From: Omnitrophica bacterium GWA2_41_15
GTDB lineage: Bacteria > Omnitrophota > Gorgyraeia > Gygaellales > Profunditerraquicolaceae
DNA: 64,000 nucleotides
Direction of reading: 5' to 3'
Assembly: GCA_919901915.1 (NCBI GenBank)
Contig: CAKKQB010000028.1
Span: 38,499-102,498, forward strand
The first letter of the stretch is position 1. Each line of letters begins with the position of its first letter. The translations under genes were made by a program, and so were the position numbers. Shown here in pieces: positions 5,099 to 63,402 of the stretch. The notes below the pieces were generated by a model. The model made no database searches, was not told the origin of the DNA, and was given only the letters and a program-made list of their open reading frames with translations.

Positions 5099-7462
5099 TT
5101 ATAATTTACGTGCTATTTTCTCAATCTCAAACGCCTCAATCACATCGCCTTCCAAAGTCTGATCAAATCCTGCCAGGCTTATTCCACATTCAAAATCAGC
5201 AAGGATTTCGCGCGCATCGTCTTTAAACCGCTTTAACGAAGAAAGCTTACCTTCAAAAACAACCTGCCCGTTCCTTACTAAATTAATCTGGCAATTCCGG
5301 GTAATCTTACCCTTAGTAACAAAGCAACCGGCAATTGTCCCCGCTTTTGATAATTTAAAAACCTTTCTTACTTCAGCGCTGCCTGAGAAAACCTTCTTTA
5401 TTTTAGGCTCCAACATTCCCTCTAACGCTGCTTTCAGCTCATTAACCAATTCGTAAATAATATTATAAATCTTTATCTCAATCCCCTCTTTAGCCGCCTG
5501 TTTTTTGGCTAAATCATCCGCGACAACATTAAATCCCATGATAAGAGCATTCGAAGCCACGGCTAATACCACATCAGAAGTATTTATATCACCCGCGCCA
5601 GCATGTATTATATTCAATTTGATTTCCGCGGTATCTATTTTACTAAAAGTTTCTTTTATCGCCTCGAGCGAACCCTGCACATCCGTCTTAATTATCAACT
5701 TTAATTCCTGAAGCTTTCCTTCCGCTATCTGAGCATGTAAATCCTCAAGATTAATCCTTTTTACCACCTGCATATGTTGCTGTTTTTCCTTTTCTAAACG
5801 CGTAACTGCTAATTCTTTTGCCTGATTCTCGTCCTCAATTACAAAAAATTGTTCACCTGCCTGTGGGATACCAGCTATGCCTAGAACCTCAACCGCGTAA
5901 GAAGGAGGCGCGGCAGTTATAGACAGGCCGCGATCATTAAGCATTGCCCTGATTTTACCATAAAATTTTCCTACGATAATATTCTCATTTAAACGCAGTG
6001 TGCCATTTTGCACGAGAAGAGTAGCAACAGGGCCTTTTGCCGGAGTAATCTTTGCTTCTATCACTACCCCGCAGGCGGGCCTTTTGGGATTACATCTTAA
6101 TTCTAACATCTGAGCTTCCAGAAGTATCATCTCAAGCAACGCATCTATCCCTTGGCCTGTCTTTGCTGATACCGGAACAATTATAGTTTTACCACCCCAA
6201 TCTTCAGCAGTAAGATCCATCCCCGCAAGCTGTTTTTTTACCCGGTCAATATCTGCCCCTTGTTTATCAACCTTATTCATAGCTACAATTATAGGCACGC
6301 CTGCCGCGCGGGCATGGTCAACTGCCTCCTGAGTCTGAGGCATTACACCATCATCCGCGGCCACCACCAAAACTACTATATCAGTAACACCTGCTCCGCG
6401 GCTACGCATAGCAGTAAAAGCTTCATGGCCAGGCGTATCCAGAAAAGTAACTTCACCGTGTTCTAAAATAACATGGTAAGCGCCAATATGCTGCGTGATA
6501 CCACCGTGCTCGGTATCCACAACCTTGCTCTTTCTTATAATGTCTAACAAAGAAGTCTTACCGTGATCGACATGCCCCATAAAAGTCACTACTGGAAATT
6601 TATGCCGCAAATCATCAGTTGAATCTTTTATTTCATGCGCGCGCAAAACTAACTCTTCTTTATTAAGGGCCTTCTTTATTTTATATCCGTATTTCTGACA
6701 AATTTTAACCACCACAGCTTCATCCAAAACCTGATTTATGTTTGCCATAACACCCATATTCATAAGGCTCTTCATAAAACCCGATAACTTCTCCTGCAAT
6801 TTTACAGCCAAATTTTTAACAATTACAGGAAACTCTAACTCAAGTTCTTTTAATTCAACCACAGGAGCCTCGACCTTAGCTTCGACCTTGACCTCAGGCT
6901 TTATCTCAACCTTAGCCTCAACCTTAGCCTCAACCTTTACTTCCTCAACCTTAGCCTCAGGTTTTATCTCAACCTTAGCCTCAACCTTAACCTCAGGCTT
7001 AGCCTCGACCTTAGCCTCAGTCTTTACTTCCTTAACCTCAGGCTTAGCCTCGACATTAGCCTCAACCTTAGTCTCAACCTCAGCCTTTACTTCCTTAGCC
7101 TCAACCTTAGTCTCAACCTCAGCCTTTACTTCCTTAGCCTCAACCTTAGTCTCAACCCTAACCTCCGTCTCAGCCTTAACCTTAGCCTCAGCCTTAGCTA
7201 CCTCAACCTTAGCCTTAGCCTTTATTTCCTTAGCCCTTATTTCCTTAGCCTCAACCTTTACTTCCTTAATCTCAGCCTTAATCTCAGCCTTTTTAACCGG
7301 TTTAGAAACAACTATCTTCTTAATTTTAGCCGCGGCATCAGCTTTAGGTTTGATTATTTTCTTAACAATCTTCTTAATCAAATTTATCTTCGGCGTTATT
7401 TTTTTAATCTTGCCCTTTTCTTCTTCCTTAGGAACTGTTTTTTCTTTCTTAATTTTTAGCAT
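5099..7462 (-). CDS. infB: Translation initiation factor IF-2 with an expanded KVEAK low-complexity N-terminus
   Basis: G-domain motifs [17 protein letters not shown] and NKVD, followed by the IF2 C-terminal domains. The N-terminal third is a K/E/V/A tandem repeat encoded by DNA tandem repeats at 6840-7300. Confidence 0.9.
6840..7300. repeat. Coding tandem repeat ('ccttagcctcaacc'-like units) inside infB
   Basis: Direct reading shows iterated cttagcctcaacc / ctcagccttagc units. This repeat also produces the spurious plus-strand STLAST ORF at 6738..7499. Confidence 0.8.
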
Positions 7463-9564: not shown

Positions 9565-10911
9565 CTACCGTATTTCGTCGTTCGTCGTTCGCTTCACGAA
9601 CAACGCTTCACGCTTCGCAAGATACGGAATTATTTCTTCTCTCGGCTTAATAATCTTTTCGCCGCCGCGGCGCACCTTTAATTCTATGGTATTACTTTTC
9701 AAAAATTCCTTACCCACTATTAACTGTAAAGGAATTCCCAAAAGATCCGCGTCTTTAAATTTAACGCCTGCGCGCTCATCACGGTCATCTAACAAAACAT
9801 CAAACCCCTCGCGCTTAAGCTCATTATAAATTTCTACCGCGCTCCCAAAAATCTTTTTCTCCGTTACATCCAGAGGCAAAATAATAATTTTATAAGGAGC
9901 AATTTCATCCGGCCAGACAATACCAGCGGTATCATAATTTTGCTCAATTACCGCGGAAATCAACCGCGAAACGCCTATTCCGTAACAACCCATAATTATA
10001 GGTTTAAGCTTTCCGTCAGCATCAAGAAAATTTCCTCCCAACATCGTTGTATATTTAGTTCCCAGCTTAAAAATATGCCCTACTTCAATAGTATTAAGCT
10101 CTTGCGTCTTAGTGCCGCATTTGGCGCAATTATCATCTTGGCTTTGGCTATTGGAAGCCAAACCACTACCTGCTGGTTTGTGGTCATCTTCAAGCTCCGG
10201 TAAAGGCAAAGTGTTTGTCTTTACTGCTTCACATTTAGGGCATACCCTAACTACATCCTCTCCGTCTTGAGCCGGAACCATAAACTCATGTGAAATATTC
10301 CCGCCCATCACGCCAGAATCAGCTTCTGTAACAAGAAAATTAAGGCCGCATCTTTTAAATATCTTCTGATAAGCGCTATGCATTGCCTGATAATTTTTAT
10401 CTAATCCATCTTCATCTTTATCAAAACTATACGCATCCTTCATAATAAATTCGCACGCCCTAATCAAGCCAAACCGCGGACGAAGCTCATCGCGAAATTT
10501 TGTCTGGAGCTGATATAAAATTAAAGGCAGCTGCCTGTAACTAGACACGCAGTTTTTTACTAAATCCGTGATAACCTCTTCGTGGGTCGGGCCTAAACAA
10601 AGTTTCCTACCCTTTCTGTCAATAAATTTTAGCATTACATCATTTAAAGTTTTATCGCGGCCTGACCTCTGCCATAATTCTAACGGCTGCAATGCCGGCA
10701 GTAATAATTCGCTCGCGCCGCAAGATTCCATCTCCTGCCGGATTATCTTTTGAATATTATTCAATACCCTATAGCCTAAAGGTAAATAAGAATAAGCGCC
10801 AGCGATAAGCATGCGCGTAAGCCCAGAGCGCAAAAGCAATTTATGGCTTATAGATTCAGCTTCCTGCGGATTCTCTTTTAAAGTTGGTATAAAAGTTTTT
10901 GACCAATACAT
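9565..10911 (-). CDS. proS: Prolyl-tRNA synthetase (class II, archaeal/eukaryote-like type)
   Basis: Class II motifs and a zinc-binding C-terminal region; 448 aa. The last ~12 codons (KRTTNDEIR) are encoded by a heptamer hairpin repeat at 9570-9625. Confidence 0.85.
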   Translation of the reverse strand: MYWSKTFIPTLKENPQEAESISHKLLLRSGLTRMLIAGAYSYLPLGYRVLNNIQKIIRQEMESCGASELLLPALQPLELWQRSGRDKTLNDVMLKFIDRKGRKLCLGPTHEEVITDLVKNCVSSYRQLPLILYQLQTKFRDELRPRFGLIRACEFIMKDAYSFDKDEDGLDKNYQAMHSAYQKIFKRCGLNFLVTEADSGVMGGNISHEFMVPAQDGEDVVRVCPKCEAVKTNTLPLPELEDDHKPAGSGLASNSQSQDDNCAKCGTKTQELNTIEVGHIFKLGTKYTTMLGGNFLDADGKLKPIIMGCYGIGVSRLISAVIEQNYDTAGIVWPDEIAPYKIIILPLDVTEKKIFGSAVEIYNELKREGFDVLLDDRDERAGVKFKDADLLGIPLQLIVGKEFLKSNTIELKVRRGGEKIIKPREEIIPYLAKREALFVKRTTNDEIR

Positions 10912-12219: not shown

Positions 12220-13340
12220 TTCTTCACCTGTATCCCTTCTAACAAAGCATCAACACATTTATCAAAAGAAACTTTTTTTATCAATTTGCCCTTACTAAAC
12301 AACACCCCCATCTTCTTACCAAAAGCGATCCCAATATCCGCCTGCCTTGCCTCTCCCGGGCCATTAACCTCACAGCCCATTACAGCCACTTTAATCGGTT
12401 TGCCGGTTAACCTGTTAGCCTGTTTGCCTGTTAAACGGGATAACGGGATAACGGGATAACGGGATAACGAATTTTCTAATTCTTTTATTATCTTAACTAA
12501 ATCCACCCCGCAACGGCCGCAGGTAGGACAACTTATAATCTCAGGGCCAAAACATCTCAAACCCAAAGATTCTAAAATGGCTCTGGCTGCCTTGATTTCT
12601 TGCCTTGGCTCATCAGTAAGCGATACCCTTATTGTATCACCTATTCCATCCATCAACAAAGCCCCTAACGCAATGCTGGATTTTATCCCTCCATTATACG
12701 AAGCGCCTGTCGCGGTAAGGCCTAAATGTAAAGGATAGTCGCTTAGCTTAGCTATTTTACGATACGCCTCTACAGTATCTAAAATATCCGACCCCTTAAG
12801 AGAAATAACAATATCGTGGAATTTAAATCTTTCTAAAATTTTTACATAATCTAACGCGCTTTTAACCATTTTATCCGCTTGTGACCGGCAAACCAGCAAA
12901 CCGGCTAACCGGCTAACCGATAACGATCCCGAATTCACCCCCACCCTTATAGGAATATGGTTAATTTTCGCTGCCCTAACTATTTCTTTAATCTGATCTT
13001 GCTTATAAATATTTCCGGGATTCAACCTAATTTTATCCGCGCCATTATCAATTGCCTCCAGCGCCAAACGCCAATTAAAATGAATATCCGCGGCTATCGG
13101 CAATTTTACCTTTAGTTTAATTCTTTTAATTGCCCGCGCGTCAAGGCTGTCTTTTATTGCTAAACGGACTATTTCACAACCAGCGCTTTCTAATTCTTTA
13201 AGCTGTCTAACTGTCTTTTCTATATCAGAAGTTTTGACCTTAGCCATTGACTGAATAGCAATGGGGTTCGCGCCGCCAATTTCTATATTACCAATTTTTA
13301 TAATTCTGGATTTGCGTCTTTTAATTACCATAAACACCAC
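12216..13340 (-). CDS. ispG: 4-hydroxy-3-methylbut-2-enyl diphosphate synthase IspG (GcpE), with two in-frame repeat insertions
   Basis: N-terminal TIM-barrel domain and a C-terminal 4Fe-4S domain (CPTCGRC). Insert peptides SRLTGKQANRLTGKP and SVSRLAGLLVCRSQ are encoded by ccggtta-type hairpin repeats at 12396-12469 and 12885-12925. Confidence 0.9.
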   Translation of the reverse strand: MVFMVIKRRKSRIIKIGNIEIGGANPIAIQSMAKVKTSDIEKTVRQLKELESAGCEIVRLAIKDSLDARAIKRIKLKVKLPIAADIHFNWRLALEAIDNGADKIRLNPGNIYKQDQIKEIVRAAKINHIPIRVGVNSGSLSVSRLAGLLVCRSQADKMVKSALDYVKILERFKFHDIVISLKGSDILDTVEAYRKIAKLSDYPLHLGLTATGASYNGGIKSSIALGALLMDGIGDTIRVSLTDEPRQEIKAARAILESLGLRCFGPEIISCPTCGRCGVDLVKIIKELENSLSRYPVIPLSRLTGKQANRLTGKPIKVAVMGCEVNGPGEARQADIGIAFGKKMGVLFSKGKLIKKVSFDKCVDALLEGIQVKK

Positions 13341-28006: not shown

Positions 28007-28043
28007 CTCCTGATAGTTTTAATAACAATTCCCTCCCCCTTGT

Positions 28044-34242: not shown

Positions 34243-35275
34243 TTTTAGCGTCCTCTGTTGAATTTATAATTAACTTAGGCCTTCCAGTAAGAACAATCTT
34301 TTTATCTGAAGCGGTATAAAGCGCTTCTTCGCTGTAAGAAACATTTTCCCCGCGAGAAATCTTTACATTTCCCTTCGCGATAATCTTGTCTATTTGGCTT
34401 CCTATGGATTTCGGCCCTTGCTTTAATTCACCAGTAGGGACAGCGCAGTGCGCTGTCCCTACAGCTGTCCCTACGTTATCTTTGTGTTCCCTACCGGTCC
34501 GAATAAAATAGACATCCATTTTATCGCTCGAGATTTCAGATCCCTGCTGGCTGACTTTAACATTATTGCTAAATTGAGCGATATTTTTTTCATAATCTAC
34601 CTCAAGCGGGCCATCGCAGGTAATGATTATTTTTTCTTGTGATTTTACGCCTAAAAGCCCTTCTTTCTGAACAGGCTCAATGTCTAACCGCACATCGCGT
34701 TCTAAGGCAATCTGTTTTAAATCAGACTGCCCCTTTACCCCTGTCGCCGTCACAGTCATATTATCTCTTTTTATATTTACCGGATCACCTGTTGTAACAA
34801 CCCCGCCTTTTCTATCCCAATCCAAAGAATCAGTAGTTAGTTTTGTGCCGCCGGAAGTAGTAATAACAACATCCTGCTTTAGATTAACCTTACCATTTTC
34901 TTTATTGAAATCGCCTTTTTTAGCGCTAAGCCGAATATCTTCTCCTTTTCCATAAAAATTACCCACCACACTATCAAGCTTTACCTGCGATTGAAAAATA
35001 TCGGCTGTTTTAGCGCGAAGATCCCATTCCTTTTTACCTTTTTCTCCCTGGCCAGCAACGCTAAAATCATTAATCTGCTGATCTGCTTCAATAGATGACT
35101 GTTCAGCGGCAAATGAGAAATTATAAATACCAAAACATAAATAACAAAATAAACATAAAGCGTAAAATAAGCTCGTATCTCGTGAATCGTATCTCGTGAA
35201 TCGTTTCCCAACGAGATACGAGATACAAGATACAAAATACGAGATACGAACGACGATTCCTATTCTAAATATCAT
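34223..35275 (-). CDS. OstA-like LptA/LptC-family periplasmic LPS transport protein; start is uncertain
   Basis: Beta-jellyroll OstA-like repeats with the pattern K.N.....NV.......I..D. Lies between kdsC and lptB as in the canonical operon. The N-terminal ~35 codons translate the heptamer repeat at 35172-35260. Confidence 0.55.
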
Positions 35276-35807: not shown

Positions 35808-35859
35808 ATTTGTGAACCGGTGAACCGGTGAACTGGTTAACCGGTTAACCGGCTAACCC

Positions 35860-38532: not shown

Positions 38533-38597
38533 ATTTCCTCACTTTGTTCGGAAGAGTACAGAGAACAGAAAACAGAGAAAAACCTTTCTGTACTCTC

Positions 38598-40211: not shown

Positions 40212-42344
40212 TTATTTACCGGCGACTGCCGTTTCTATTGCGCAGTTTGGACGGGTTAAGATCGCGTCAGCGGCTTCTATTACATCCTCTATGCTGACAG
40301 CTTTAAGACAGGCAAATTCTTTTTTGCAGTTATGCGCCAGACATTCAATACATCCTGCTTCTTTATGATGTAAAATTTTGTCTCTTTCACCCAACGGTCC
40401 CCAGCGTTTAGGGCTTAGGCCTTTTTGATTCCTGCCAAATATGGTAATTACAGGCGTCCCCACTGCCACAGCAATATGCATGGGGCCAGAGTCAGTGGAA
40501 ATAAACAACTTACACCTCTTTAAAATACTGGCTAACTGGCTTATTGACGCTCTTCCTGTCAGGTTAATTACAGGAATACGCGAATGTTTCACTAAATTTA
40601 ACGCCAATAAAGAGTCTTGCGCTCCGCCAACCACAATCACCTTAAAACCATATTTTTCAACCACCCTCTCGCCAACCCGGGCAAAACGCTCCTGCGGCCA
40701 AATCCTAGACGGACAACTTGCGCCCGGATGAATTGCCAATATTTTATCAGAGCTCTTAATCCCTTCCTTGCTAAATAATGTCTCTACCCAATCTTCAGAA
40801 TCCTGCCTAATGGGAACAAATAATTTTTTATCTTTTGGCTCAATCCCCAAAGCCCTTACCAAATCAAGGCTGTATTCTACCTCATGTTTTTCTCCTAATT
40901 GTTTAGTATGTTTTATTCTTTTTGTAAGCAAAAAACCTAATTTATAGTCATACCCAATTCTTCTGGGTATGCGAGCAAAAAATATTACAAGATGCGCGCG
41001 GCTTGTAGGATGCAAAATCAGGCTTACATCAAATCTTTTTTTCTTTAATTGGCTGGAAAATTTTAATGACCCATACCAGCTTTTATGCAAAGCGCTCTTA
41101 TCATATATTATTACGTCATCTAAATAAGGATTGACCTCCACTATTTCCTTTGTATAAGGCGAAACCATCATCGCTATATAGGCATTAGGATATTCATCTC
41201 TTAATGCCTTTATTACCGGCGTGGATAAAACCACATCGCCGATTCTATCGGTCCTTACGATAAGAATCCGCTTGAAATTATTTTTTGAGCGGATAGTGTT
41301 TGGCGGATAGCGGAACCCCAAAATATTTCTTACATCTCTTATTACATCTTCAACCTTAATCAAATTCATACACTCTACAGTATCAAACCTGCACTGTGCC
41401 GCTTGACACGGCCGGCAAAAAATATCCTTTTTAACTACCGCGCGAACCTCTGACCAAGGGCCATATTTCTCCTCATTAGTAGGCCCAAATATTGCTGCTA
41501 CAGGGACATTTAAATAACTAGCCAAATGCGAAACCGCGCTATCATTGCTTACCAATATTTTTGCTTTTTTTAATAACGCGGCCAATTGCAAAAAAGTTAT
41601 TTTTCCGGCTAAATCTATTATAGATTCTTCGCCCTTCGAACCCGTAAAAAGGTAACTGTCACGCCCTTTGCGACTGTCACCTTTTTGTTCACCTTTTTTT
41701 AGATACTCCGTTATAACTGCGTCATCCTTATCTCCCACCAAAATTATCTTGGCAGAAAATTCTTGTATTAAAAATGGAATTAATTCCGCGAACTTGTCCT
41801 TGTCCCACATCTTCAGATGACTGCGCGCTCCCGGGGCAATAACGATTATTTTATCCCCGGCGGCTAAACCATTCTCTTCCAATATTTTTTTAATACATTC
41901 TTCGTCTTGGCGGCTAATATATAAAGACTTTTTATCCGCGGCTTCTCGCGGACTTTCACGAACTCCCATAGCGCTAAGCGCCCCGCGCAAGCGCCTTTCC
42001 TTCATATGTTTTATTTTCCCGGAAATAAACAGAAACGGCGAAATTTTAATCTTCGCGGGTAAAAACGCGCCATACAAACTATTACGCAAATCAAAAACCG
42101 CGTCAAACTTTTCCTTCTTAAGTTGATTGAATAATTTTATCTTATCCCTTAACTTTGAATGTTTATTATAAATAATGAGTTTATCTATGGAAGGGTTATT
42201 TTCGAATATCTCCTTTGGGCGAGGAGCAGTCATAACCGTAATTTTAGCCGCAGGAAACTTCTCTTGCAATATATCCAAAACCGGCAAAGTCAGGACCACA
42301 TCGCCGAGATTACTTAGAGTAATAAAGAGAATCTTGTTTATCAT
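40212..42344 (-). CDS. Tandem-fused double GT9 heptosyltransferase (two ADP-heptose:LPS heptosyltransferase domains in one 710-aa ORF)
   Basis: Two complete GT9 folds, each ending in the ...SNDSGPMH..A..TP...FG motif region. Two palindromic repeat copies are read in frame: 41646-41685 (encoding GDSRKGRDSY) and 41288-41316 (FRYPPNTIRS). Confidence 0.75.
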   Translation of the reverse strand: MINKILFITLSNLGDVVLTLPVLDILQEKFPAAKITVMTAPRPKEIFENNPSIDKLIIYNKHSKLRDKIKLFNQLKKEKFDAVFDLRNSLYGAFLPAKIKISPFLFISGKIKHMKERRLRGALSAMGVRESPREAADKKSLYISRQDEECIKKILEENGLAAGDKIIVIAPGARSHLKMWDKDKFAELIPFLIQEFSAKIILVGDKDDAVITEYLKKGEQKGDSRKGRDSYLFTGSKGEESIIDLAGKITFLQLAALLKKAKILVSNDSAVSHLASYLNVPVAAIFGPTNEEKYGPWSEVRAVVKKDIFCRPCQAAQCRFDTVECMNLIKVEDVIRDVRNILGFRYPPNTIRSKNNFKRILIVRTDRIGDVVLSTPVIKALRDEYPNAYIAMMVSPYTKEIVEVNPYLDDVIIYDKSALHKSWYGSLKFSSQLKKKRFDVSLILHPTSRAHLVIFFARIPRRIGYDYKLGFLLTKRIKHTKQLGEKHEVEYSLDLVRALGIEPKDKKLFVPIRQDSEDWVETLFSKEGIKSSDKILAIHPGASCPSRIWPQERFARVGERVVEKYGFKVIVVGGAQDSLLALNLVKHSRIPVINLTGRASISQLASILKRCKLFISTDSGPMHIAVAVGTPVITIFGRNQKGLSPKRWGPLGERDKILHHKEAGCIECLAHNCKKEFACLKAVSIEDVIEAADAILTRPNCAIETAVAGK

Positions 42345-43496: not shown

Positions 43497-44618
43497 TTAT
43501 TTCACAACAATCTCTAGATATACCTTTTCTGTTTCAAAAACCATTTTTTCCTGCGAAAAATTCTCTTTGATAAAAGTTTTGGCATTACCCGCTAAATACT
43601 CTCTCTTGGGCGCGGAATTCAATAATTCTAAAATCGCCGCGGCTAAAGCGCCTGAATCAGCAGATTTTACTAACAGGCCGCTATATCCATCTTTTATTAA
43701 ACTTCGTATGCCTCCGACATTTGAACCAATACAAGCCTTGGCTTGCGCCATTGCCTCCATTAAGGCTAGACCCAAGCCCTCTTTCAAAGAAGGCATCACA
43801 AAAATATCCATAACTGACAACACTTCTCTCGTATCGCTAACCCCGGGCAAAAAATATGTATTTTTTTCAATTCCCAAAACTTTAACTAAATTTACCAACT
43901 CTTCTTTCATCTTGCCTTTACCAACAATAAATAACTGCGCTTGGCTAACAGCGCCTAAAACAATTTTCATTGCCCGAATAAGATAAATATGGCCTTTTAC
44001 ATCACTTAGCCTTGCCACAATACCAATCACCGGCCCATCACTTAGGCCAAAACCCTTCTTTCTCTGTTCTCTGTTCTCCCTGTCCCGAGCGAAGTCGAGG
44101 GATGTTCTCTGTTCTCCGAATTTATTAACATCTATCCCATTATGTATAACAACTATATTTTTCTTATCCACCTTAAAATCTTTAATCAAATGTTCTTCTA
44201 CTTGTTCGCTTATAGCAATTGTCTTTTGCCCCCAACAGGGAAAAAGCCAACGCGAAAATCTTGTCATAAAAAATCCATGGCCAGTCGAAATATAAGGAAT
44301 ACCCGTTTTCCTGCTTAACCAGCATCCTAAAACCTGCGTTGTGCGGCTATTCGCATGCATGATACTTATCTGATTCTGCTTTAAGAATCGCTTTAATCTA
44401 AAATAACTCAATAACATTTTGGGACTCGCCTCTGACTTTGTCCTAATGGGAATGTGGATATAATTTATCCCCTCTTCAATAAATCTTCCAAGAAGATCCC
44501 CCCCGCTTGAGGCGACATAAACATTGTGGCCGCGTTTTTTAAGGCCTGTAGCCAGAGACAAAACATAACTGGTTATCCCGCCGATATTGAGATGATTGGT
44601 GATAAATAGGATGTTCAT
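43497..44618 (-). CDS. GT4 family glycosyltransferase with an in-frame repeat insertion
   Basis: GT-B fold with the E..EAMA motif (GLALMEAMAQAKAC). The insert QRTSLDFARDRENREQRK is encoded by the agaacag heptamer hairpin at 44061-44120. Confidence 0.8.
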   Translation of the reverse strand: MNILFITNHLNIGGITSYVLSLATGLKKRGHNVYVASSGGDLLGRFIEEGINYIHIPIRTKSEASPKMLLSYFRLKRFLKQNQISIMHANSRTTQVLGCWLSRKTGIPYISTGHGFFMTRFSRWLFPCWGQKTIAISEQVEEHLIKDFKVDKKNIVVIHNGIDVNKFGEQRTSLDFARDRENREQRKKGFGLSDGPVIGIVARLSDVKGHIYLIRAMKIVLGAVSQAQLFIVGKGKMKEELVNLVKVLGIEKNTYFLPGVSDTREVLSVMDIFVMPSLKEGLGLALMEAMAQAKACIGSNVGGIRSLIKDGYSGLLVKSADSGALAAAILELLNSAPKREYLAGNAKTFIKENFSQEKMVFETEKVYLEIVVK

Positions 44619-44621
44619 TTT

Positions 44622-46727
44622 TTACTTCAATAATTTCTCTACCGCCTCTATTACCTCCTGCGGCGTAATCAGCTCCATACATTTGCGGCTTTTACACTTT
44701 GATTTATAGCATGGGCCGCAGACTAAATCTTTTTTTATCACCACACATCCTTTCACAGGCGCAAGATGCCGCCGAGGGTCAGTAGGGCCAAAAAGCGCGA
44801 CGAAAGGGGTGTTTACCGCTGTAGCGATATGCAAGGGACTAGAATCGCCAGACACAAACACACTACATCTTTTAATCAGGCATGCCAACTGATTAATTGT
44901 GGTTTTACCGCATGTATTGATAAGCTTTGTATTCTTGACTGAATTTAACAATGCTTGCGCTACAGCGCTATCTTTCTCTGTTCCGGTAAGCACAACCCGC
45001 ATATCCTTAGAGCCTAATTCCTCGCAAAATTTAACCATATATTTAAAAGGCCAATTTTTAGTTTGCCACCTGACGCTCGCGCTTATGTTTAACCCAACTA
45101 TTTTCGCTTTAGCGCTTAACCACTGGCTGTTTAATAATTCATCTATATACTGGCCATCTTCAACCGAAGGCCAAAGCTCTAAACGCGGGTCATTCAAATC
45201 TATACCCAACATCTTCAATATTCTAAATTGATGCGAAACCGGATCAATAGAAGGCCTGCCATCCTCAATCCGATGATTAAGCAAATTGCCAAATTTTTTA
45301 TTGTCATATCCATACCGATCCAACGCTAAGCTCAATCCGGCTAACATATGAGATTTACGGTTATTCTGCAAATCAATAACAATATCAAAATTCTTTTTTC
45401 TTAAAACTTCTGCCAACCGCCAATACCCTCCCGGCCCCTTATCTTTACCTTTAAAATCAACAACCAATAATTCATCTATATAAGGAGACGCCAAAAGCGC
45501 GTCCTTTGAATCATTTGAAACTAATAAACTAATTTTATAGTCTTTTTTTCCGCCTTTAGCGAAAAACTTTTCCTTAATCGCCTTTAACGCGGCAGTAGAA
45601 AGTATGATATCGCCTAAAGAACTAAATTTAATAATCAGAATCTTAAAATTACTTAAAGCATCCTCATAGACACCAAGGGTATTTTTTACCATAAGCTCAA
45701 CATTATACTTGTCCTTTACTTTTTTATATGCTTTTTCCGCCAGATTACGCGCGAAAAGCGCATCCTTAAAAATTCTTATCGCTGCCTCAGCGATCCTTGC
45801 CGGATCAGACGGCGGAACAATCAAGCCCGTTTCTTCATTTTCAATAATATCAACTACTCCTCCCACCCGCGTGGCAACCACAGGCACGCCTGAAGCCTGC
45901 GCCTCTATAATCACCCTGCCAAACGCTTCATGAGTAGTAGTAGCAAGTACAAGGAGATCCAAATGCGATAAAATCCCCGGTATATCCCGCTGTGTGCCTA
46001 AAAAATTAGTGCGCGACGTTTGCCCCAGCCTCTTAACCAAGCCTCTAATTTCTTCCTTATAGGCCTCCTTAGATGCAGGCGCGTCACCAACTATCCAAAC
46101 CTTTAAATTTGGCACAACCTCTCCTACTTTAGCCATGGCCTTAATAAAATCCAAATGTCCCTTAAGAGGCGTAATCCTGCCGATAATCCCCACGTTAAAA
46201 TCATCTTTTCTTTTTTCTTTTGGATCAATATATCTAAATTTCTCAAGATCAACACTACGCGGAACCAGCCTTATACGTTCGCGCATAACGCCAAAATCAT
46301 CAATCATATGCCGGGCAATAACATTGCTTAAAACAATCACGCGCTTTCCCCACCCCATCACTGAACTTAAAGGATGTTTTTTATAGTAACCGTGACAGGT
46401 AGTGATAAAAATTGTTTTCGCGCGCCGGCAGGCAAAATAGGCAATCCACGCCGGAACGCGTGAACGCGCGTGCACAATATCAATCTCTTCTTTTTTAATA
46501 ATTTCCACTAAGCGCGGGATTAATTTTATTATAGAAATAATGGATTTCTCATGCACCGGCAGTTTATAATGCACCGCGCCATTTGACTCGAGCTCTTTAA
46601 CTAATTCTCCGCCGCCAGACACGACAACCGCTTTATGCCCAAGTCTGATTAGATACTTGGCCAGGTCAAGGGTCCCGGTCTCTACTCCGCCGACATTAAG
46701 TTCAGGTAAAATTTGCAAAATATTCAT
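44622..46727 (-). CDS. GT4-GT9 fusion glycosyltransferase (N-terminal GT4, C-terminal heptosyltransferase-like)
   Basis: The N-terminal ~350 aa are GT4 (EAFGRVIIEAQASGVPVVA). The C-terminal ~340 aa are GT9 (SGDSSPLHIATAVNTPFVALFGPTDP). Confidence 0.75.
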   Translation of the reverse strand: MNILQILPELNVGGVETGTLDLAKYLIRLGHKAVVVSGGGELVKELESNGAVHYKLPVHEKSIISIIKLIPRLVEIIKKEEIDIVHARSRVPAWIAYFACRRAKTIFITTCHGYYKKHPLSSVMGWGKRVIVLSNVIARHMIDDFGVMRERIRLVPRSVDLEKFRYIDPKEKRKDDFNVGIIGRITPLKGHLDFIKAMAKVGEVVPNLKVWIVGDAPASKEAYKEEIRGLVKRLGQTSRTNFLGTQRDIPGILSHLDLLVLATTTHEAFGRVIIEAQASGVPVVATRVGGVVDIIENEETGLIVPPSDPARIAEAAIRIFKDALFARNLAEKAYKKVKDKYNVELMVKNTLGVYEDALSNFKILIIKFSSLGDIILSTAALKAIKEKFFAKGGKKDYKISLLVSNDSKDALLASPYIDELLVVDFKGKDKGPGGYWRLAEVLRKKNFDIVIDLQNNRKSHMLAGLSLALDRYGYDNKKFGNLLNHRIEDGRPSIDPVSHQFRILKMLGIDLNDPRLELWPSVEDGQYIDELLNSQWLSAKAKIVGLNISASVRWQTKNWPFKYMVKFCEELGSKDMRVVLTGTEKDSAVAQALLNSVKNTKLINTCGKTTINQLACLIKRCSVFVSGDSSPLHIATAVNTPFVALFGPTDPRRHLAPVKGCVVIKKDLVCGPCYKSKCKSRKCMELITPQEVIEAVEKLLK

Positions 46728-46798
46728 AATACAAAACCTCTTAATTTGTAATTTCTATTATAATTGGTTAACGCTGAAAAACCCTCATTATAAGCTAA

Positions 46799-48748
46799 TT
46801 ACATTATCCTCTTTACCGCTTCAACTACCAAAAGATTATCCTTAGGCGTATAAATCGAAGGATTCGTTCGCCAGATATGATCAATTTTTTTACCTAATTC
46901 CAAAATATCAACTAAATAAATATATTTGTTTCTGGCAAAATAATCAAGGAATCTTTTATGCTTCCCGTCTAATCCGGACGACTTAAAAACAAACGTATAT
47001 TTATTACTGCTTACTGCCTCTGAAACCATGGACAAACTGTCAGGAGAAGTTACAATAATTTTACTCAAACCAAGTATCCCTCCCACAGCCTCCGGAACAT
47101 TCTTTTCATTAGCTACAATTAGCATTTTACAACGTGGATAATCTCTGAACTCCTCTTTAACCAAAGCCTCTACTTCTTTTGAACTACGCCTTGAAGTTGT
47201 AATCAGAATACCTGCGTTCAAACTTTCAGATACTGCTTTTACCTGCTTAATCACCCCTAAAACCGTGTCTTTGTTAAGAGTGAAATTTTTCGTATCTCCC
47301 CCGATTAATAAACCAATGTAAAATCCAGTATTGCGTATTGCGTATTGCGTATTGCGTATTAACTTATCCGTCTCTTCTTTTAAATAAACCTCATCTATTA
47401 AATTCAGCGCTCCCTCGGTCACTACGACATTTTTTCTCTTCGGCGGGCAATCGTGTTTAGGCATTATTACCAGATCAAATCTTTTCATGCTTAATACAGA
47501 CGGCCGCATAACTACTATTGACTTAGCCATGTTTTCTCTGGCTAATATAAAATTAATCGGAGCCGCGCTTGCGCCGCAAGAAATTATTATATCGGGCTTC
47601 GCGCTTATTAAGCCATCATAAACATCACTTTTAAGAAAACTCTTCAAGCACCCTGAACAGCCCTGGCAATTATATTTACCTGCCAAAAAACTACTAAAAA
47701 TAAGCGCGTATTTAGAAAAATTGTTTTTAAATCTTATTTCTTTACTTTCAATTTTCGCCTCAATTCCCCTCTCCTTTAAAACATCACTAACGAGCCTCGC
47801 TACGCCTTGCGCCTGCCGGACATGCCCGGCTTTCGCGTCATTTAAAAGCAAAATACTTTTCTCTTTCGTATACTTCCATATTTTATAAGTCCAAAAAAGT
47901 TCTTTAGGGTATTTAAAAATATATTTTTCATAAACCCCAACCAGCCTTTGTAGATTGCTCTGAATATCTTTATCCGAATCGGCGCTCTTTTTGATTTCAA
48001 ATGCCGGCTCAATAAAAACCTTTGTAAACGGCCCTTTTACCCGCGTATAAAAAACCGGAATAATCGCGGCATCATACCTTAGCCCCAACTTCAACGCGCC
48101 GGTTGCCATAGAAGCGTATTGGCCGAAAAACTTAACCAAAACGCCGTTTTTACCGCCTTGGTCCATAGTCATACCAACCGCGCAATTATCTCCAAGCGCT
48201 TCAATTAATTGGCGTATACCGCCTTTTCTATAAATCACTTTAGAGCCTTTTAATCCACGGTATGAATTGAGCAGTTTATTCAGGCGGGGATATTTTTGCC
48301 CTTGCACGAATACAACATAAGGAAATCCAAGGTTAGCGCCGATAATATTAGAAAGCTCCCAACTGCCTTCGTGAACCACTAAAAGAATTACGCCTTTCCC
48401 TTTCTTAAAACCGGCAGAAATATTTTCCAATCCCTCGAAAGCCACATATTTATCTAAATATTTTTTATCCACCAAAGGGACAAGAAATACCTCTATCAAA
48501 TTCTGTCCAAATGCCCGATAAAATTCCTTGGTTATCCGGAATAATTCAGATGGCGGCTTCTCCTGTCCGAAGGCTGTTTTTATATTAGAATAGGCAACCG
48601 CCCTATGCCTAACATCAAAACAAAAAAGAAAATCACCCAGCCTTCTTCCCAGAAAAAAGCTAAAATTTTTAGGCAAGCATCTAATAAAAGAACCAACCGC
48701 CCTAAAAAGAATACAGCCCCAATAATCTATTATAGAATTCTTGTTCAT
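46799..48748 (-). CDS. Lipid A biosynthesis acyltransferase (LpxL/HtrB family) fused to a ~350-aa C-terminal domain of unknown function
   Basis: N-terminal LPLAT domain with the HEGSWE (H-x-N/S-WE) motif. An in-frame repeat insert NTQYAIRNTQYAIRNT is encoded by the gcgtatt heptamers at 47335-47363. Confidence 0.6.
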   Translation of the reverse strand: MNKNSIIDYWGCILFRAVGSFIRCLPKNFSFFLGRRLGDFLFCFDVRHRAVAYSNIKTAFGQEKPPSELFRITKEFYRAFGQNLIEVFLVPLVDKKYLDKYVAFEGLENISAGFKKGKGVILLVVHEGSWELSNIIGANLGFPYVVFVQGQKYPRLNKLLNSYRGLKGSKVIYRKGGIRQLIEALGDNCAVGMTMDQGGKNGVLVKFFGQYASMATGALKLGLRYDAAIIPVFYTRVKGPFTKVFIEPAFEIKKSADSDKDIQSNLQRLVGVYEKYIFKYPKELFWTYKIWKYTKEKSILLLNDAKAGHVRQAQGVARLVSDVLKERGIEAKIESKEIRFKNNFSKYALIFSSFLAGKYNCQGCSGCLKSFLKSDVYDGLISAKPDIIISCGASAAPINFILARENMAKSIVVMRPSVLSMKRFDLVIMPKHDCPPKRKNVVVTEGALNLIDEVYLKEETDKLIRNTQYAIRNTGFYIGLLIGGDTKNFTLNKDTVLGVIKQVKAVSESLNAGILITTSRRSSKEVEALVKEEFRDYPRCKMLIVANEKNVPEAVGGILGLSKIIVTSPDSLSMVSEAVSSNKYTFVFKSSGLDGKHKRFLDYFARNKYIYLVDILELGKKIDHIWRTNPSIYTPKDNLLVVEAVKRIM

Positions 48749-49796
48749 TTTTTATGATTGTTAATTCGATACGCAAGACTAAAATTCGTGAAGCGTGAGG
48801 CGTGAAGCGTGAAGCGTAAAGCCGCGCCGCGTCCTTTTCTGTGGTGATAATTGTGTCTATACCCTTATCAACAGAATCTTTGATAATTTTATCTATATCT
48901 GTCTTGATGTAATTATGGTGGTCGGGAAATTTAAAAGATAAGCCTATTTTAGCGCCGAGTGAAATAATCAAATTTTCAAAGGAATCGGGGTCTCCTATGC
49001 CGCAAAATATACTTACGCGCTTATCCTTAAGTATATCTGTCCCAAATAATTCAGCGCTTTTTTCAAGATTATATAATCCTATGGGTTTATGAACACTTTC
49101 CGCGATCAATGTTTTTGGATTAATCTTACTTAAAATATCTTTAAGCTCATCCAGTTTCACCCCAAAATCAACCTTGGTCAAAAAAAAGATATCCGCGCGC
49201 CTCAAGCAAGAAAGCGGCTCGCGCAAGATCCCCCTGGGTATCATATGGCGGTTACCAAAGGGATTAACAGCATCAATAGTTACAATCTCTAAATCTTTTT
49301 TAAGCCTCCACTGCTGAAAGCCATCATCCAACATAACCGTATCCACGCCATAATCTTTAAGCGCTCTTTTTGCCGCCCTAATTCTATCCGCATCCACAAT
49401 TACCGGAATATCGTTTAATTTTTTAGAAAGCATGTAGGGCTCATCGCCCATGGTTTCATAGCGGATAGCGGATAGCGCCTGCCTGCCGGCAAGGCAGGGA
49501 TAGCGGATAGATTTTCTTTTATAACCGCGGGTTAATATTGCGACTTTGCGGCCTTCCTGTTTTAAATACCTCGCGATAACTTCAACTAAAGAGGTTTTTC
49601 CTGTCCCGCCTACGGTAATATTACCCACGCTGATGACTTTAACATTCAGGCGATTCTGCCTAAGGAAACAAAAAAAGATTAAACCCCTGATTACTAATCC
49701 ATAAATAAGGGAGATAAGAAATAGGAAACCTTTTACAATAGCCGGGCCAATTCCCTTATATTTATCTGTAGCTAAATTATAAAGATACTTTTTCAT
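48702..49796 (-). CDS. lpxK: Tetraacyldisaccharide 4'-kinase
   Basis: P-loop GNITVGGTGKT. Two in-frame repeat inserts: SIRYPCLAGRQALSAIRY (49459-49510) and RFTPHASR (48786-48823). Confidence 0.85.
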   Translation of the reverse strand: MKKYLYNLATDKYKGIGPAIVKGFLFLISLIYGLVIRGLIFFCFLRQNRLNVKVISVGNITVGGTGKTSLVEVIARYLKQEGRKVAILTRGYKRKSIRYPCLAGRQALSAIRYETMGDEPYMLSKKLNDIPVIVDADRIRAAKRALKDYGVDTVMLDDGFQQWRLKKDLEIVTIDAVNPFGNRHMIPRGILREPLSCLRRADIFFLTKVDFGVKLDELKDILSKINPKTLIAESVHKPIGLYNLEKSAELFGTDILKDKRVSIFCGIGDPDSFENLIISLGAKIGLSFKFPDHHNYIKTDIDKIIKDSVDKGIDTIITTEKDAARLYASRFTPHASRILVLRIELTIIKNEQEFYNRLLGLYSF

Positions 49797-54824: not shown

Positions 54825-55164
54825 TCTTTATTTAAACGATATCCTTAAGAGTATTAAGAAGATAGAGAGAGAGAGAGAGATATATATATATACAAAAGGG
54901 CTAACCTTAAAACAGGTAATGAAGAATGAATTAGTCGTTGATGGAGTTGCCAAGAATCTGGAGGTGATAGGTGAAGCGGTAAAAAATATTCCTTTCCAGA
55001 TAAAAGAAAAATATCCGAAGATTGAATGGAAGAAAATTGCCGGTTTAAGGGATATTTTAACCCACGAATATTTTAGTATAGATTTGGAAGTCTTATGGGA
55101 TATTACACAGAATAAATTACCTATTTTGAAAAAGCAGATTTTAACATTACTGCTTACGAAGTGA
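54811..55164 (+). CDS. hepT: HepT-type HEPN toxin (DUF86)
   Basis: R-x4-H-x-Y motif RDILTHEY near the C-terminus; 117 aa. It overlaps mntA by 14 nt. Confidence 0.8.
   Translation: MREYNLYLNDILKSIKKIEREREIYIYTKGLTLKQVMKNELVVDGVAKNLEVIGEAVKNIPFQIKEKYPKIEWKKIAGLRDILTHEYFSIDLEVLWDITQNKLPILKKQILTLLLTK
54874..54902. repeat. Dinucleotide repeat (AG)8(AT)6 inside hepT
   Basis: The run agagagagagagagagatatatatatata is read as EREREIYIY. Confidence 0.85.
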
Positions 55165-55483: not shown

Positions 55484-56759
55484 TTTTTATTAATTCAATT
55501 GCCCTTTTTGTTGACCCCTTATTTTTAAAAAGCGTTTCTCCTGCCTTGCGGCCTATTTCCTTAGCCTGCCCGGGATCAATAAGGAGCTCTTTTATTTTTT
55601 GCTTTAGAGCCTCAGGGCTATTTACCATAATTGCGGCATCATCAGTCAAGAATAAATCAGTGATACCGCGAAAATTAAAGACGTGAGGGCCGAAGAGGAT
55701 TGGTTTTTCTAGGGAAGCGGGTTCTAAAATATTATGCCCGCCCTTTTGGACAAGGCTGCCGCCCACAAAGACAATGTCTGCGATTGTATAGTAACTCATA
55801 AGTTCTCCTATGGTATCTAGAATAAAAACTGTTTGCCGGTTTGCCCATTCACCCGTTAACCCGTTAACCCGCTCACCCATTAACCCGCTCACCCTTAAAG
55901 AATTAAATTCATATTTCTTTATCACCCGCTCTATCTCTTTAGCTCTCTCCGGATGCCGCGGGGCAATAAGTAATCTTAAATAAGGAAACTCCGACGATAA
56001 TTCTTTATAAACACTTAATATTATTTTCTCCTCCCCCGGATGCGTACTTGCCGCCACAAAAAGCTTTTCACGTTTTTCTAACCCTAATTTTTGCTTATAA
56101 TCCGTGTCCTTCGTGAATTTTTTATCCGTATAATCCGTAGTATCAAACTTCAAATTTCCGCTCACTTTGATTTTTTCCCGCGCAACCCCTAAAGCCGCGA
56201 ATCTTTCCGCGTCAAGTTGAGTTTGAACGCAAAAGAGCGAAATTTTGGTTAAAATTGGCTTTAATAAAAATTTTATAACTGAATACCCCTTAAAAGAGCC
56301 ATCTGAAATCCTGCCATTAACGGTAACAATCGGAATCTTTCTTTTATGGAGGCAGGAAATAAGATTCGGCCAAATTTCGGTTTCTGCCAAGATAAATAAG
56401 GATGGATTTATTTTATTTATTACTATCCGGACTAAGAAACTTAAATCTAAGGGAAGATACGTTACAAAGTCAGTTTCTTGGGCAATACTCTTTGCAATTT
56501 TATTTCCCGTGGCAGTTACAGTTGAAATTACGAAATTTTTACCGGGATAAGCCCTTCTTAACTCCTCCAATAAACTCCTTATCGCCATTACCTCGCCCAC
56601 ACTTACCGCGTGTATCCAGATGGGCCTATCTAATTTCAATCCCCGCGGCAAAATTCCCAATCGCGCCAAAAACCCCTTATGAAACTTCCTTTTAAATAAA
56701 TATACGGGTAAATAAATAAGCGCGAAAATCAAAAATATTAAATCGTATATTATAAACAT
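55467..56759 (-). CDS. waaA: 3-deoxy-D-manno-octulosonic acid transferase with an in-frame repeat insertion
   Basis: WIHAVSVGEV signature and a GT-B C-terminal domain (FVGGSLV.KGGHN.LE). The insert GERVNGLTGEWANRQ is encoded by the heptamer repeat at 55833-55896. Confidence 0.85.
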   Translation of the reverse strand: MFIIYDLIFLIFALIYLPVYLFKRKFHKGFLARLGILPRGLKLDRPIWIHAVSVGEVMAIRSLLEELRRAYPGKNFVISTVTATGNKIAKSIAQETDFVTYLPLDLSFLVRIVINKINPSLFILAETEIWPNLISCLHKRKIPIVTVNGRISDGSFKGYSVIKFLLKPILTKISLFCVQTQLDAERFAALGVAREKIKVSGNLKFDTTDYTDKKFTKDTDYKQKLGLEKREKLFVAASTHPGEEKIILSVYKELSSEFPYLRLLIAPRHPERAKEIERVIKKYEFNSLRVSGLMGERVNGLTGEWANRQTVFILDTIGELMSYYTIADIVFVGGSLVQKGGHNILEPASLEKPILFGPHVFNFRGITDLFLTDDAAIMVNSPEALKQKIKELLIDPGQAKEIGRKAGETLFKNKGSTKRAIELIKNELFR

Positions 56760-56795
56760 ATCATTAGTGATTAGTGATTAGTGCCCCTTTAATCT

Positions 56796-57164
56796 TTAAC
56801 CACCATTCACCTTCTTTTTAAGTGAGCTTATTAAGGCATTTAACATCTTCTTAATTTCAAGCAGATCTTTTACTAATAAATTTAATTCTTTAGAAAAAAC
56901 AAACTTCAGATTACTGGATATAATCAACAAAGTTTCTATCTCGCCACAAGAAGCTAATGCGATATATAAAAACTGAATATATTCATTAGTATATCTTCGG
57001 GTGTAACCTTCAGATATATTTGCTGGCACAGAAACCGCGGCTCTTCTAATTTGACTCACTAATCCATATAATTCTTCTTTAGGAAATGGGATTGTTTCTT
57101 GATATATCTTAGTTACAAAATCTACTGCTTTTTGCCAAACAATTAATTCCTTAAAGTCTTTCAC
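56796..57164 (-). CDS. Four-helix-bundle protein (TIGR02436 / 23S rRNA intervening-sequence protein family, Avd-like)
   Basis: 122 aa with IVWQKA...RRAAVSVPANISEGY, typical of this family. Confidence 0.7.
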   Translation of the reverse strand: MKDFKELIVWQKAVDFVTKIYQETIPFPKEELYGLVSQIRRAAVSVPANISEGYTRRYTNEYIQFLYIALASCGEIETLLIISSNLKFVFSKELNLLVKDLLEIKKMLNALISSLKKKVNGG

Positions 57165-57205
57165 TTTTTCTCCCTAACCCTAATCCCTAATCACTAATCA
57201 CTATC

Positions 57206-63313: not shown

Positions 63314-63402
63314 TACAGCCTCCTTTTGCGTATTGCGTATTGCGTATTGCGTATTGCGCAATACGCATCACGCACGACGCACGACGAAATATGCGCGACG
63401 AA

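Follow-up and report, generated by a model that had tools for sequence, protein, structure and literature searches.

Heptamer arrays with nested palindromic modules in intergenic spacers and enzyme loops of an Omnitrophota lineage

The 64-kb stretch of Omnitrophota DNA studied here (contig CAKKQB010000028.1, referred to as the window; 39.9% GC, with almost every gene on the minus strand) contains many short tandem arrays of 7-nt units, two of which lie in frame within a gene for a GT4 glycosyltransferase and a gene fusing an LpxL-type acyltransferase to an ELM1-like domain. These two sites had been flagged in an earlier note made from the sequence alone. The arrays are probably selfish or neutral micro-repeats, present genome-wide in this Omnitrophota lineage and filtered by selection, of a kind with the short tandemly repeated repetitive sequences (STRR) and small dispersed repeats (SDR) of cyanobacteria. 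Arrays with other units occupy the orthologous positions in related species, units are shared within genomes, palindromic modules are precisely inserted in some arrays, elements are present in one and missing from another of two close genomes, and one array differs in copy number between near-identical assemblies.

The window was compared with loci from 80 species representatives, covering about 10 kb on each side of one lipopolysaccharide (LPS) cluster, together with IspG proteins. Loci and contigs are referred to by numbers prefixed L and GT4 proteins by numbers prefixed P. All sequences compared are metagenome assemblies. The window is 100% identical to a contig in the European Nucleotide Archive (ENA) from Hainich groundwater well H43 and near-identical to a second assembly.

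Period-7 arrays in the window and related species

Exact arrays in the window had a period of 7 in 18 cases, 8 in five and 6 in three, and none had a period of 9 or 10. Many more imperfect arrays were detected by Tandem Repeats Finder (TRF), which in 1.15 Mb from the 80 related species returned 164 rows of period 7 versus 64 of period 8 and 59 of period 9. The density of arrays peaked in the closest relatives of the window and dropped to zero, or nearly so, in orthologue loci further removed. The 190 period-7 arrays comprised 134 canonical units, none of which was G-quadruplex (G4)-like. The commonest array length was about 33 nt (about 4.7 units) and the clearest arrays were exactly 33 nt long; array length modulo three as given by TRF was uninformative, because its boundaries are fuzzy.

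The array loci of the window were classified manually, because a crude split based on open reading frames (ORFs) overcalls coding sequence (95% of bases). About 15 loci were intergenic and eight were coding, and per base the arrays were commoner in non-coding spacers. Most arrays were found in short gaps separating co-directional genes, often in inverted arrangements that give hairpins. An excess of period 7, several dispersed unit families and intergenic enrichment, the features of heptameric repeat families, were all found. Units of the coding arrays also recurred between genes in the window: GAGAACA at 38553, AATACGC in the 5' untranslated region (UTR) of aroC and CCGCTAT at five places.

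15608-15652, 17201-17252, 26295-26391, 29321-29390, 35172-35249 and 63326-63392: examples of intergenic inverted (hairpin) arrays
38553..38579, plus strand: intergenic (AGAGAAC)3.9 array of the GT4 unit family (repeat scan)

In-frame period-7 arrays were confirmed at both of the flagged sites, with motif counts far above chance: GCGTATTGCGTATT had seven matches in the window versus 0.01 expected, and AGAACAGAGAACAG had four versus 0.03 expected. As 7 and 3 are coprime, a heptamer array encodes one cyclic peptide of seven residues in all three frames, and a stop-free unit is therefore safe within a gene if the total length is a multiple of three.

The array in the GT4 glycosyltransferase

43497..44618, minus strand: GT4 glycosyltransferase gene, 373 aa, the first flagged host (ORF list)
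44103..44116, minus strand: GT4 array, upstream part in gene sense, 14 nt (register match to 44060-44078)
44079..44102, minus strand: 24-nt module TCCCTCGACTTCGCTCGGGACAGG (residues SLDFARDR), in frame, without target duplication (precise array interruption)
44060..44078, minus strand: GT4 array, downstream part in gene sense, 19 nt (repeat scan)

In gene sense the GT4 element consists of GGAGAACAGAGAACA, TCCCTCGACTTCGCTCGGGACAGG and GAGAACAGAGAACAGAGAA in succession, that is (GAGAACA)2, the 24-nt module and (GAGAACA)2.7, and it encodes GEQRTSLDFARDRENREQRK at residues 168-187, as the earlier note had proposed. That note had also described a heptamer hairpin at 44061-44120, which was not found: the heptamer blocks are direct rather than inverted, and the RNA fold of the 69-nt stretch (-9 kcal/mol) is no more stable than those of shuffled sequences (z = +0.47). 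When the module was taken out in silico the two blocks rejoined in perfect register as a 33-nt (GAGAACA)4.7 array. The same unit is present in the orthologues P0008 and P0014, which read EQRTENREQRK, and the window adds only the eight residues SLDFARDR. The module was found in a single copy among the window and the 80 related loci. Comparison of these sequences suggests that it is a recent insert into an old, orthologously shared array.

The element lies between the two Pfam domains of the protein (Glyco_transf_4, residues 12-165; Glycos_transf_1, residues 184-347). In an AlphaFold2 (AF2) model with a mean predicted local confidence score (pLDDT) of 89.7, residues 171-180 had the lowest values, averaging 61, and the element as modelled fits a tolerant hinge. 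The GT4 homologues all came from Omnitrophota metagenome-assembled genomes (MAGs), the nearest non-identical one at 74% identity. When 120 homologues were aligned, the segment flanked by NGIDVxKF and KKxLGLxDGPVVGIVARLS was often about 11 residues long with a 7-residue period, and its sequence varied by lineage (EQRTENREQRK, IRNTQYAIRK, RVQSTEYRVQK, NQKPETRNQK, RCTKYDVRSTK, RTTEDGRRTT, RYALSDTRYA, QQTTDNRQQT and RRKKEEGRRKK). The DNA of the 80 species includes true heptamer arrays at this site, for example (GAGGACA)4 in L004, (AGAAGAC)4.7 in L012 and units of GTACGAW in L003, and protein P0010 carries the AATACGC unit. An array with another unit was found in roughly half of the 74-80 orthologues, and autocorrelation was best at a lag of 7 in 36 of 74 loci. 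Whatever the unit, the spacing of the conserved motifs was 38 residues in most species, and the reading frame was open through the site in all 80 orthologues. Distant orthologues, with FGDFSxRxKLRxDLG and a spacing of 36 residues, showed no periodicity.

Identical arrays in the LpxL-ELM1 fusion and upstream of aroC

46799..48748, minus strand: fusion gene for an LpxL-type acyltransferase and an ELM1-like domain, 649 aa, the second flagged host (ORF list, Pfam)
47328..47360, minus strand: exact 33-nt (AATACGC)4.7 array encoding LIRNTQYAIRNT (residues 463-474), in the ELM1-like half (repeat scan)
63326..63358, minus strand: second exact 33-nt (AATACGC)4.7 array, in the aroC 5' UTR directly upstream of the Shine-Dalgarno sequence (repeat scan)
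63359..63392, minus strand: inverted partner arrays with GCGTATT and ACGCACG units, pairing with 63326-63358 (folding)

The fusion protein has a Lip_A_acyltrans domain at residues 6-292 and an ELM1-like domain (PF06258) at residues 307-612. A (GCGTATT)4 array had been placed at 47335-47363 in an LpxL-like gene. There is indeed an array and the acyltransferase half is present, but the exact run is 47328-47360 (4.7 units) and it lies in the ELM1-like half. The peptide claimed for it, NTQYAIRNTQYAIRNT, is one period too long; the site encodes LIRNTQYAIRNT, with IRNTQYAIRNT as the array peptide. As RNA this array is unstructured (z = +1.56 versus shuffles). The length of the ELM1 segment equals that of most orthologues, including distant ones, in which there is no periodicity, and several close orthologues have other periodic peptides (VQGLGFRVQG, VQATGHRLQATG, KSTEYRVPST and NTYDLRLTTY). 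A lag of 7 was the commonest best lag at this site (17 of 57 loci, versus 6-7 of 57 in control regions). To judge from the alignment, the element is an intact 33-nt array that probably replaces a loop of equal length.

The same AATACGC array is found, identical, in the coding ELM1 site and the non-coding 5' UTR of aroC, and the occurrence of one unit in both settings had been noted correctly. The aroC array stops 2 nt short of AAGGAGG and the real ATG is at 63311-63313, so the array is part of the 5' UTR. This agrees with the publicly annotated product of 347 aa, and with the suggestion that the repeat forms a false N-terminus. The region 63320-63392 folds at -36 kcal/mol (z = -5.5), and none of 200 shuffled sequences was as stable.

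Arrays in other genes

49458..49510, minus strand: LpxK site 1, a (CCGCTAT) array interrupted by the 21-nt GC palindrome CCTGCCTTGCCGGCAGGCAGG (49478-49498) and encoding SIRYPCLAGRQALSAIRY
48787..48822, minus strand: LpxK site 2, a (CTTCACG)5 array encoding ...YASRFTPHASR (repeat scan)
12406..12469, minus strand: IspG (GcpE) site B, in-frame octamer arrays SLSRYPVIPLSRLTGKQANRLT (repeat scan, orthologue alignment)
12884..12919, minus strand: IspG site A, in-frame octamer array SVSRLAGLLVCRS (repeat scan)
55851..55898, minus strand: WaaA (Kdo transferase), in-frame octamer array LRVSGLMGERVNGLTG (repeat scan)
41287..41315, minus strand: linker of a GT9-GT9 fusion, decayed CCGCTAT-type remnant (GFRYPPNTIRS)
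9574..9591, minus strand: C-terminal tail of ProRS, made up of a (CGACGAA)2.6 array (repeat scan)

At LpxK site 1 the peptide is laid out as SIRY-PCLAGRQ-ALSAIRY. The array is an insertion of 10-12 residues relative to the short orthologue forms with RGYKRxxxMGDEP, and the PCLAGRQ-type module is found in some orthologues only. At LpxK site 2 the orthologues have other peptides with a 7-residue period at the matching position, and a loop has been replaced rather than an insertion made. A lag of 7 was best in 14 of 36 loci at site 1 and in 19 of 50 at site 2; it was the commonest best lag at the ELM1 site and at both LpxK sites, while in control regions it was best in 2-7 of 50-57. The presence of arrays with other units at the orthologous GT4, ELM1 and LpxK positions argues for an old feature of tolerant loops that is shared between species.

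The label 'insert' used in the earlier note therefore needs qualification. It suits the 24-nt GT4 module, which has no counterpart in P0008 and P0014, and the array at LpxK site 1, but not the GT4 array, which roughly half of the orthologues share, nor the ELM1 segment, which is of the usual length.

The GT9-GT9 linker, with clear arrays in about 13 other species, and both IspG sites are additional hot spots across the clade. Orthologues of IspG site A have heptamer-periodic peptides, KRNTQYAIRNT among them. In one IspG gene (L212:301-1527), a nest of several REP-like (repetitive extragenic palindromic) modules, about 110 nt long, lies in frame within the octamer array that the window has at site B, and lengthens this essential enzyme by about 37 residues (GSTGSGSTGSPFALSEQSESKGSPSLEPSRAKSRD).

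LPS biosynthesis genes had been proposed as frequent hosts, and the arrays do recur in the LPS cluster (both LpxK sites, WaaA and the GT9-GT9 linker). In the window, clear internal arrays were found in 4 of 14 LPS-related genes versus 2 of 42 others (Fisher p = 0.03), a post hoc comparison of small numbers that gives a hint of enrichment. As IspG and ProRS are also hosts, the arrays are not LPS-specific.

Palindromic modules nested in arrays

Arrays with an interruption of 12-45 nt were detected at the GT4 and LpxK sites of the window, three times in L018, and in L022 and L002, with the register kept across each interruption. With the module removed, the halves sum to 33 nt at the window GT4 and LpxK sites and in the GT4 gene of L018 (31 nt at L018:13146). 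A 20-21-nt palindrome, CCTGCCTG(Y)CGGCAGGCAGG (CCTGCC...GGCAGG), was present in 19 copies in 11 related species and the window, mostly nested in arrays whose units are unrelated, and is the source of the PCLAGRQ, ACPAGRQ and CLSGRQ peptides in GT4, LpxK and IspG orthologues.

The first 20 nt of the GT4 module by window coordinate (44079-44098) form a core, TCCCTCGACTTCGCTCGGGA, for which at least 129 exact copies were found on at least 120 metagenome contigs of the Joint Genome Institute (JGI) (L091-L210). These contigs span 35-70% GC and come from soils, sediments and waters. The consensus flanks of the core are GG...TGAC, and an inverted partner was found no more than 100 nt upstream in 25 of 116 copies. 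Two copies adjoin heptamer arrays on the low-GC contig L097, and an exact reverse copy lies inside the octamer array at IspG site B of L212, another Omnitrophota genome. The core is a cosmopolitan REP-like mini-palindrome. An Rfam search with five contigs carrying it gave only sub-threshold generic hairpin matches and no family, and a literature search for module-type peptides (LDFARDD and similar) found nothing.

The arrays continue in register around the nested modules, and this suggests that they act as landing pads for wide-ranging palindromic modules. Palindromes of 20-30 nt in many dispersed copies, as in SDR- and REP-like elements, were found, and so was precise insertion without target duplication, with an intact empty site (array register, P0008 and P0014, and L002 versus L005, described below). 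The terminal inverted repeats and target-site duplication of a miniature inverted-repeat transposable element (MITE) were not found in the GT4 element, where the flanks are direct and the module is without duplication.

Unit sharing and length changes

When one mismatch was allowed, a unit was shared by 18 of 155 within-genome pairs versus 164 of 4405 between-genome pairs, and none of 2000 label permutations reached this level. In L018 a composite of (CAGRGTT)n, CCTGCCTGTCCGGCAGGCAGG and (CAGRGTT)n was found at three loci. L005 and L012 each have one unit common to the GT4 site and the GT9-GT9 linker, a single unit is present at both LpxK sites in L003 and at LpxK and GT4 in L044, and AATACGC arrays are found at both IspG sites in L211. 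Sharing of units within a genome is not predicted by pure local slippage, and copying or conversion between loci, or re-seeding, is therefore implied.

Comparison of close genomes revealed gain or loss of whole units and elements. L025 and L031 share 89% identity. At LpxK site 1 one of them has exactly three AAATCCC units (21 nt) more than the other, and the two also differ by a 14-nt indel of two units and by a 60-nt indel corresponding to an inverted-array hairpin between two genes. Relative to L002, L005 has two in-frame 30-nt GC palindromes (CCCCGCYCCTGCGYGCAGGAGCGGGG) in GT9 heptosyltransferase genes (L005:5755 and 6860), and both L004 and L005 have a 57-nt palindromic element at the 3' end of GT4, at the GT4/GT9 junction (L004:11085).

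Between the window and the second assembly (ENA NODE_43), one single nucleotide polymorphism (SNP), one octamer unit and one CT unit differ over about 58 kb, in a comparison that left out 24.4-33.5 kb of the window. The octamer unit (8 nt, 35812-35819) is fewer in the near-identical assembly and is the sole indel over 21 kb, beside one SNP. Counts of copy number had been suggested in the earlier note as a means of detecting length polymorphism; this was seen in the intergenic octamer array and, between species, as 21-nt steps, but not in the two flagged coding arrays, which are identical in every independent contig of the strain.

35812..35858, minus strand: intergenic octamer arrays in the gap between SIS/CBS-domain (KdsD-type) and Hydrolase_3 (KdsC-type) genes (assembly comparison)

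Short-read contigs from Logan (L082, L086, L087 and L090) end inside arrays, at window positions 47357, 15637, 12434 and 50303. These arrays are either repeated beyond the k-mer length or polymorphic in the population.

The CT unit (at 54863) belongs to an (AG)10.5 run at 54860-54880 in a gene for a HepT-like toxin, and samples differ there by one unit. An intact gene (117 aa) is present in the window and the H43 assembly, and a truncated one (81 aa plus a 31-aa fragment) in ERZ1292638 and ERR3858135. This dinucleotide run is a genuine candidate for an on/off switch, in a HepT/MNT-type nucleotidyltransferase toxin-antitoxin pair.

Other repeats in the window and its relatives

Several further repeats were noted. 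Two tandem 47-nt units, 97% identical and containing the hairpin TTCCCGCGAAAGCGGGAA, lie in the gap of two genes at 28043-28136. A gene for a 122-aa four-helix bundle (56796..57164; PF05635 23S_rRNA_IVP, with a weak match to bAvd) adjoins a XerC/D-like integrase and waaA, and is bracketed by heptamer arrays at 56763-56783 (ATTAGTG, three units) and 57171-57203 (TCCCTAA/CACTAAT-type). The N-terminal region of IF2 (5099..7462) has a long imperfect repeat with a 12-nt period (6866-7290), and the ORF at 676..3123 contains a 198-nt unit twice (1335-1747); both are ordinary repeats of the low-complexity or domain kind and have no relation to the heptamer family. In L034, one element of about 60 nt, made up of (AATGACA)2 followed by an A-rich tail, was found three times in 7 kb (at 9860, 12893 and 16555) and is a longer dispersed repeat based on a heptamer array.

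Origin of the arrays

As selfish or neutral micro-repeats, the family would comprise tandem arrays of 7-nt, less often 8-nt, units and GC-rich palindromic modules of 21-30 nt that are often nested precisely within them. Most arrays would lie in the spacers of co-directional genes, where inverted ones may pair into long hairpins, and about a third within genes, where they would survive only if their length is divisible by three and the protein tolerates any sequence there, for example in a surface loop or a linker between domains. Turnover would involve gain and loss of units, in steps of three inside genes; copying or conversion between the arrays of one genome, which could leave a few dominant units in each; decay by point mutation; and insertion of palindromic modules, the arrays serving as landing pads. 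Two parts of this account are inferred, namely the enzymatic route, be it slippage, conversion or transposition, and the absence of a function in the host.

A number of points weigh against this explanation. The claim that the arrays are genome-wide rests on flanks of about 10 kb around one LPS cluster and on IspG proteins. Neither the mode at about 33 nt nor the genome-specific units are predicted by simple slippage. Neutrality is assumed, and selection acting on the linker or the mRNA could account for the upkeep of an array at one loop in many species. Repeats of 31-33 nt break or confuse assemblers, so the single copy-number difference may be an assembly effect. Finally, the nearest non-identical strain has 74% identity, so the identity of the flagged arrays covers the contigs of one strain only.

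The 33-nt mode and the genome-specific units suggest that slippage alone is not enough. It is conceivable, and we raise it tentatively, that an active process in this Omnitrophota clade writes or copies genome-specific heptamer arrays of about 33 nt into many loci, the loops of essential enzymes included, as an array encodes one peptide in every frame, and that these arrays become landing pads for cosmopolitan palindromes of 20-30 nt.

None of the rival explanations was favoured by the tests that were run. The arrays could be functional nucleic-acid elements, either hairpins selected for transcript stability or processing or lineage-specific protein-binding sites, with the coding copies being the same signals in genes. 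The very stable hairpins that intergenic copies form directly 5' of ribosome-binding sites (-36 kcal/mol, z = -5.5) are in keeping with this, as are the conservation of positions across species though the sequence changes, the length of exactly 33 nt in all of the clearest arrays, and the genome-specific units, which are expected if a trans-acting factor co-evolves. We nevertheless consider it rather unlikely, given that the two flagged coding arrays fold no better than expected by chance (z = +0.47 and +1.56), that there are 134 different units among 190 arrays, that decay and loss in many lineages have had no visible consequence, and that Rfam has no family for the module contexts searched. 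Selection might instead have acted on the proteins, a flexible hydrophilic hinge of fixed length being of benefit to two-domain enzymes and a DNA repeat the cheapest route to one. The constant distance of 38 residues between GT4 motifs in most species with any unit, and the location of the element at a domain hinge modelled with low confidence, would suit such a role, but it is improbable when non-coding spacers hold more arrays per base, when identical arrays lie in coding and non-coding places, when peptides are unrelated between species, and when distant orthologues have ordinary, non-repetitive linkers of similar length.

It is highly improbable that these are contingency loci in which heptamer slippage causes frameshifts that switch LPS-modifying genes on and off, in the manner of the tetranucleotide repeats of Haemophilus. 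A change of one 7-nt unit does shift the frame, LPS glycosyltransferases are among the hosts, near-identical assemblies disagree by one unit at one array of the window, and a true candidate for a dinucleotide switch is nearby in the HepT-like gene. However, GT4 is in frame across the site in 80 of 80 species, and phase variation is therefore not supported. The coding arrays are also identical in all independent contigs of the strain, differ between species in 21-nt steps, are short (4.7 units) and are located in mid-gene linkers rather than near the 5' end. Although GT4 could be dispensable, similar arrays occur in IspG, ProRS, LpxK and WaaA, which are normally essential. Phase variation was rejected as the principal explanation on the grounds that none of the 80 species was out of frame and the strain contigs were identical; the search for out-of-frame alleles, which found none, was confined to assemblies. 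An artefact of assembly or sequencing can practically be dismissed. Short-read assemblers do break here and Logan contigs end inside arrays, but the same sequences were found in independent assemblies (ERZ1292638, ERZ1292640, ERR3858133, ERR3858135 and ERR2809142) and analogous arrays in many unrelated MAG projects.

Relationship to known repeat families

The arrays resemble the STRR heptamers of heterocyst-forming cyanobacteria, which are tandem, dispersed and mostly intergenic, with several unit families per genome. Cyanobacterial STRR units include CCCCAGT, TTGGTCA and CAACAGT, and none of these corresponds to any of the 45 commonest among the 134 canonical units. The heptamers studied by Vioque in 1997 are said to lie in the variable part of the RNase P RNA. 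We know of no description of in-frame orthologous hot spots with unit turnover for STRR. The paper by Vioque (1997, NAR 25:3471) is cited in PMC2858038, and Calothrix heptanucleotides are mentioned in PMC4692102. Unlike STRR, the arrays described here are from the phylum Omnitrophota, have unrelated units and occupy in-frame positions in protein loops, at orthologous hot spots of many species where units turn over. The resemblance is one of kind and not of descent.

The modules are similar to the SDR of Nostoc (Elhai et al. 2008, Genome Res 18:1484), which are 21-27 nt long, inserted precisely and nested in other short repeats. Elhai et al. reportedly observed in 2008 that SDRs are embedded in tandem heptamers as well. 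Passages of PMC4390886 and PMC5861425 describe the precise insertion of SDR5 into HIP1, and in the latter SDRs are reported in Nostocaceae only. Unlike SDRs, the Omnitrophota modules have other sequences, and the core TCCCTCGACTTCGCTCGGGA is spread over contigs of 35-70% GC.

An excess of heptamers is said to have been noted by Mrazek et al. in 2007. For the G-rich heptameric simple sequence repeats (SSRs) of Xanthomonas and Nostoc, parts of Rehm et al. (2015, PMC4692102) report that heptamers are over-represented among long SSRs, mostly with about four units, and that they sometimes form inverted pairs and stay between the same genes while varying in sequence. These are of one G-rich intergenic type, studied for G-quadruplex formation, whereas the Omnitrophota arrays have more than 100 unit types, none G4-like, and many are in frame. 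The Rickettsia palindromic elements (RPEs) are, according to a section of PMC10969869, dispersed repeats found in frame in unrelated housekeeping genes at fold-compatible positions. In-frame dispersal in unrelated conserved genes was likewise found here (GT4, LpxL-ELM1, LpxK, WaaA, IspG and GT9). RPEs are, however, about 150 bp long (range about 100-150 bp), with a conserved peptide per family and no tandem heptamers, whereas the Omnitrophota elements are 21-57 nt long with peptides that vary with the unit.

REP sequences and the REPINs described in part of PMC3116915, which are mobilised by REP-associated tyrosine transposases (RAYTs), are, like the modules, imperfect palindromes that are rich in GC, measure 20-30 nt and frequently occur as inverted pairs (for the GT4 core, 25 of 116 copies). 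They differ in that REPs are typically extragenic and species-specific. No RAYT gene or Y1_Tnp domain was found among the annotated genes of the approximately 60 kb covered by annotation. Like the SSRs of LPS contingency loci in Haemophilus and Neisseria, the arrays have a unit that is not a multiple of three and are found inside LPS-related genes; unlike them, they have no out-of-frame alleles, are short, and lie in mid-gene linkers of normally essential hosts. Within the library searched, there was no paper linking Omnitrophota with heptanucleotide repeats. The kind of element is known, while its occurrence in Omnitrophota and the orthologous in-frame hot spots with unit turnover appear to be undescribed.

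Implications

The practical effects of the arrays include false N-termini, as in aroC, broken short-read assemblies and spurious 'inserts' in the annotation of Omnitrophota MAGs. An excess of heptamers in some bacteria has long been noted and is unexplained, and this lineage offers an unusually clean view of it. In dozens of Omnitrophota species, loops of conserved enzymes are occupied by arrays whose units have been replaced while position and length were kept, and presence/absence events can be read directly from close genomes, making an origin by slippage testable against one by copying or insertion. Tiny repeats of this type provide a route to the remodelling of protein linkers and, if there is an active process that writes arrays, it would represent a class of mobile DNA of less than 60 nt that continually rewrites them.

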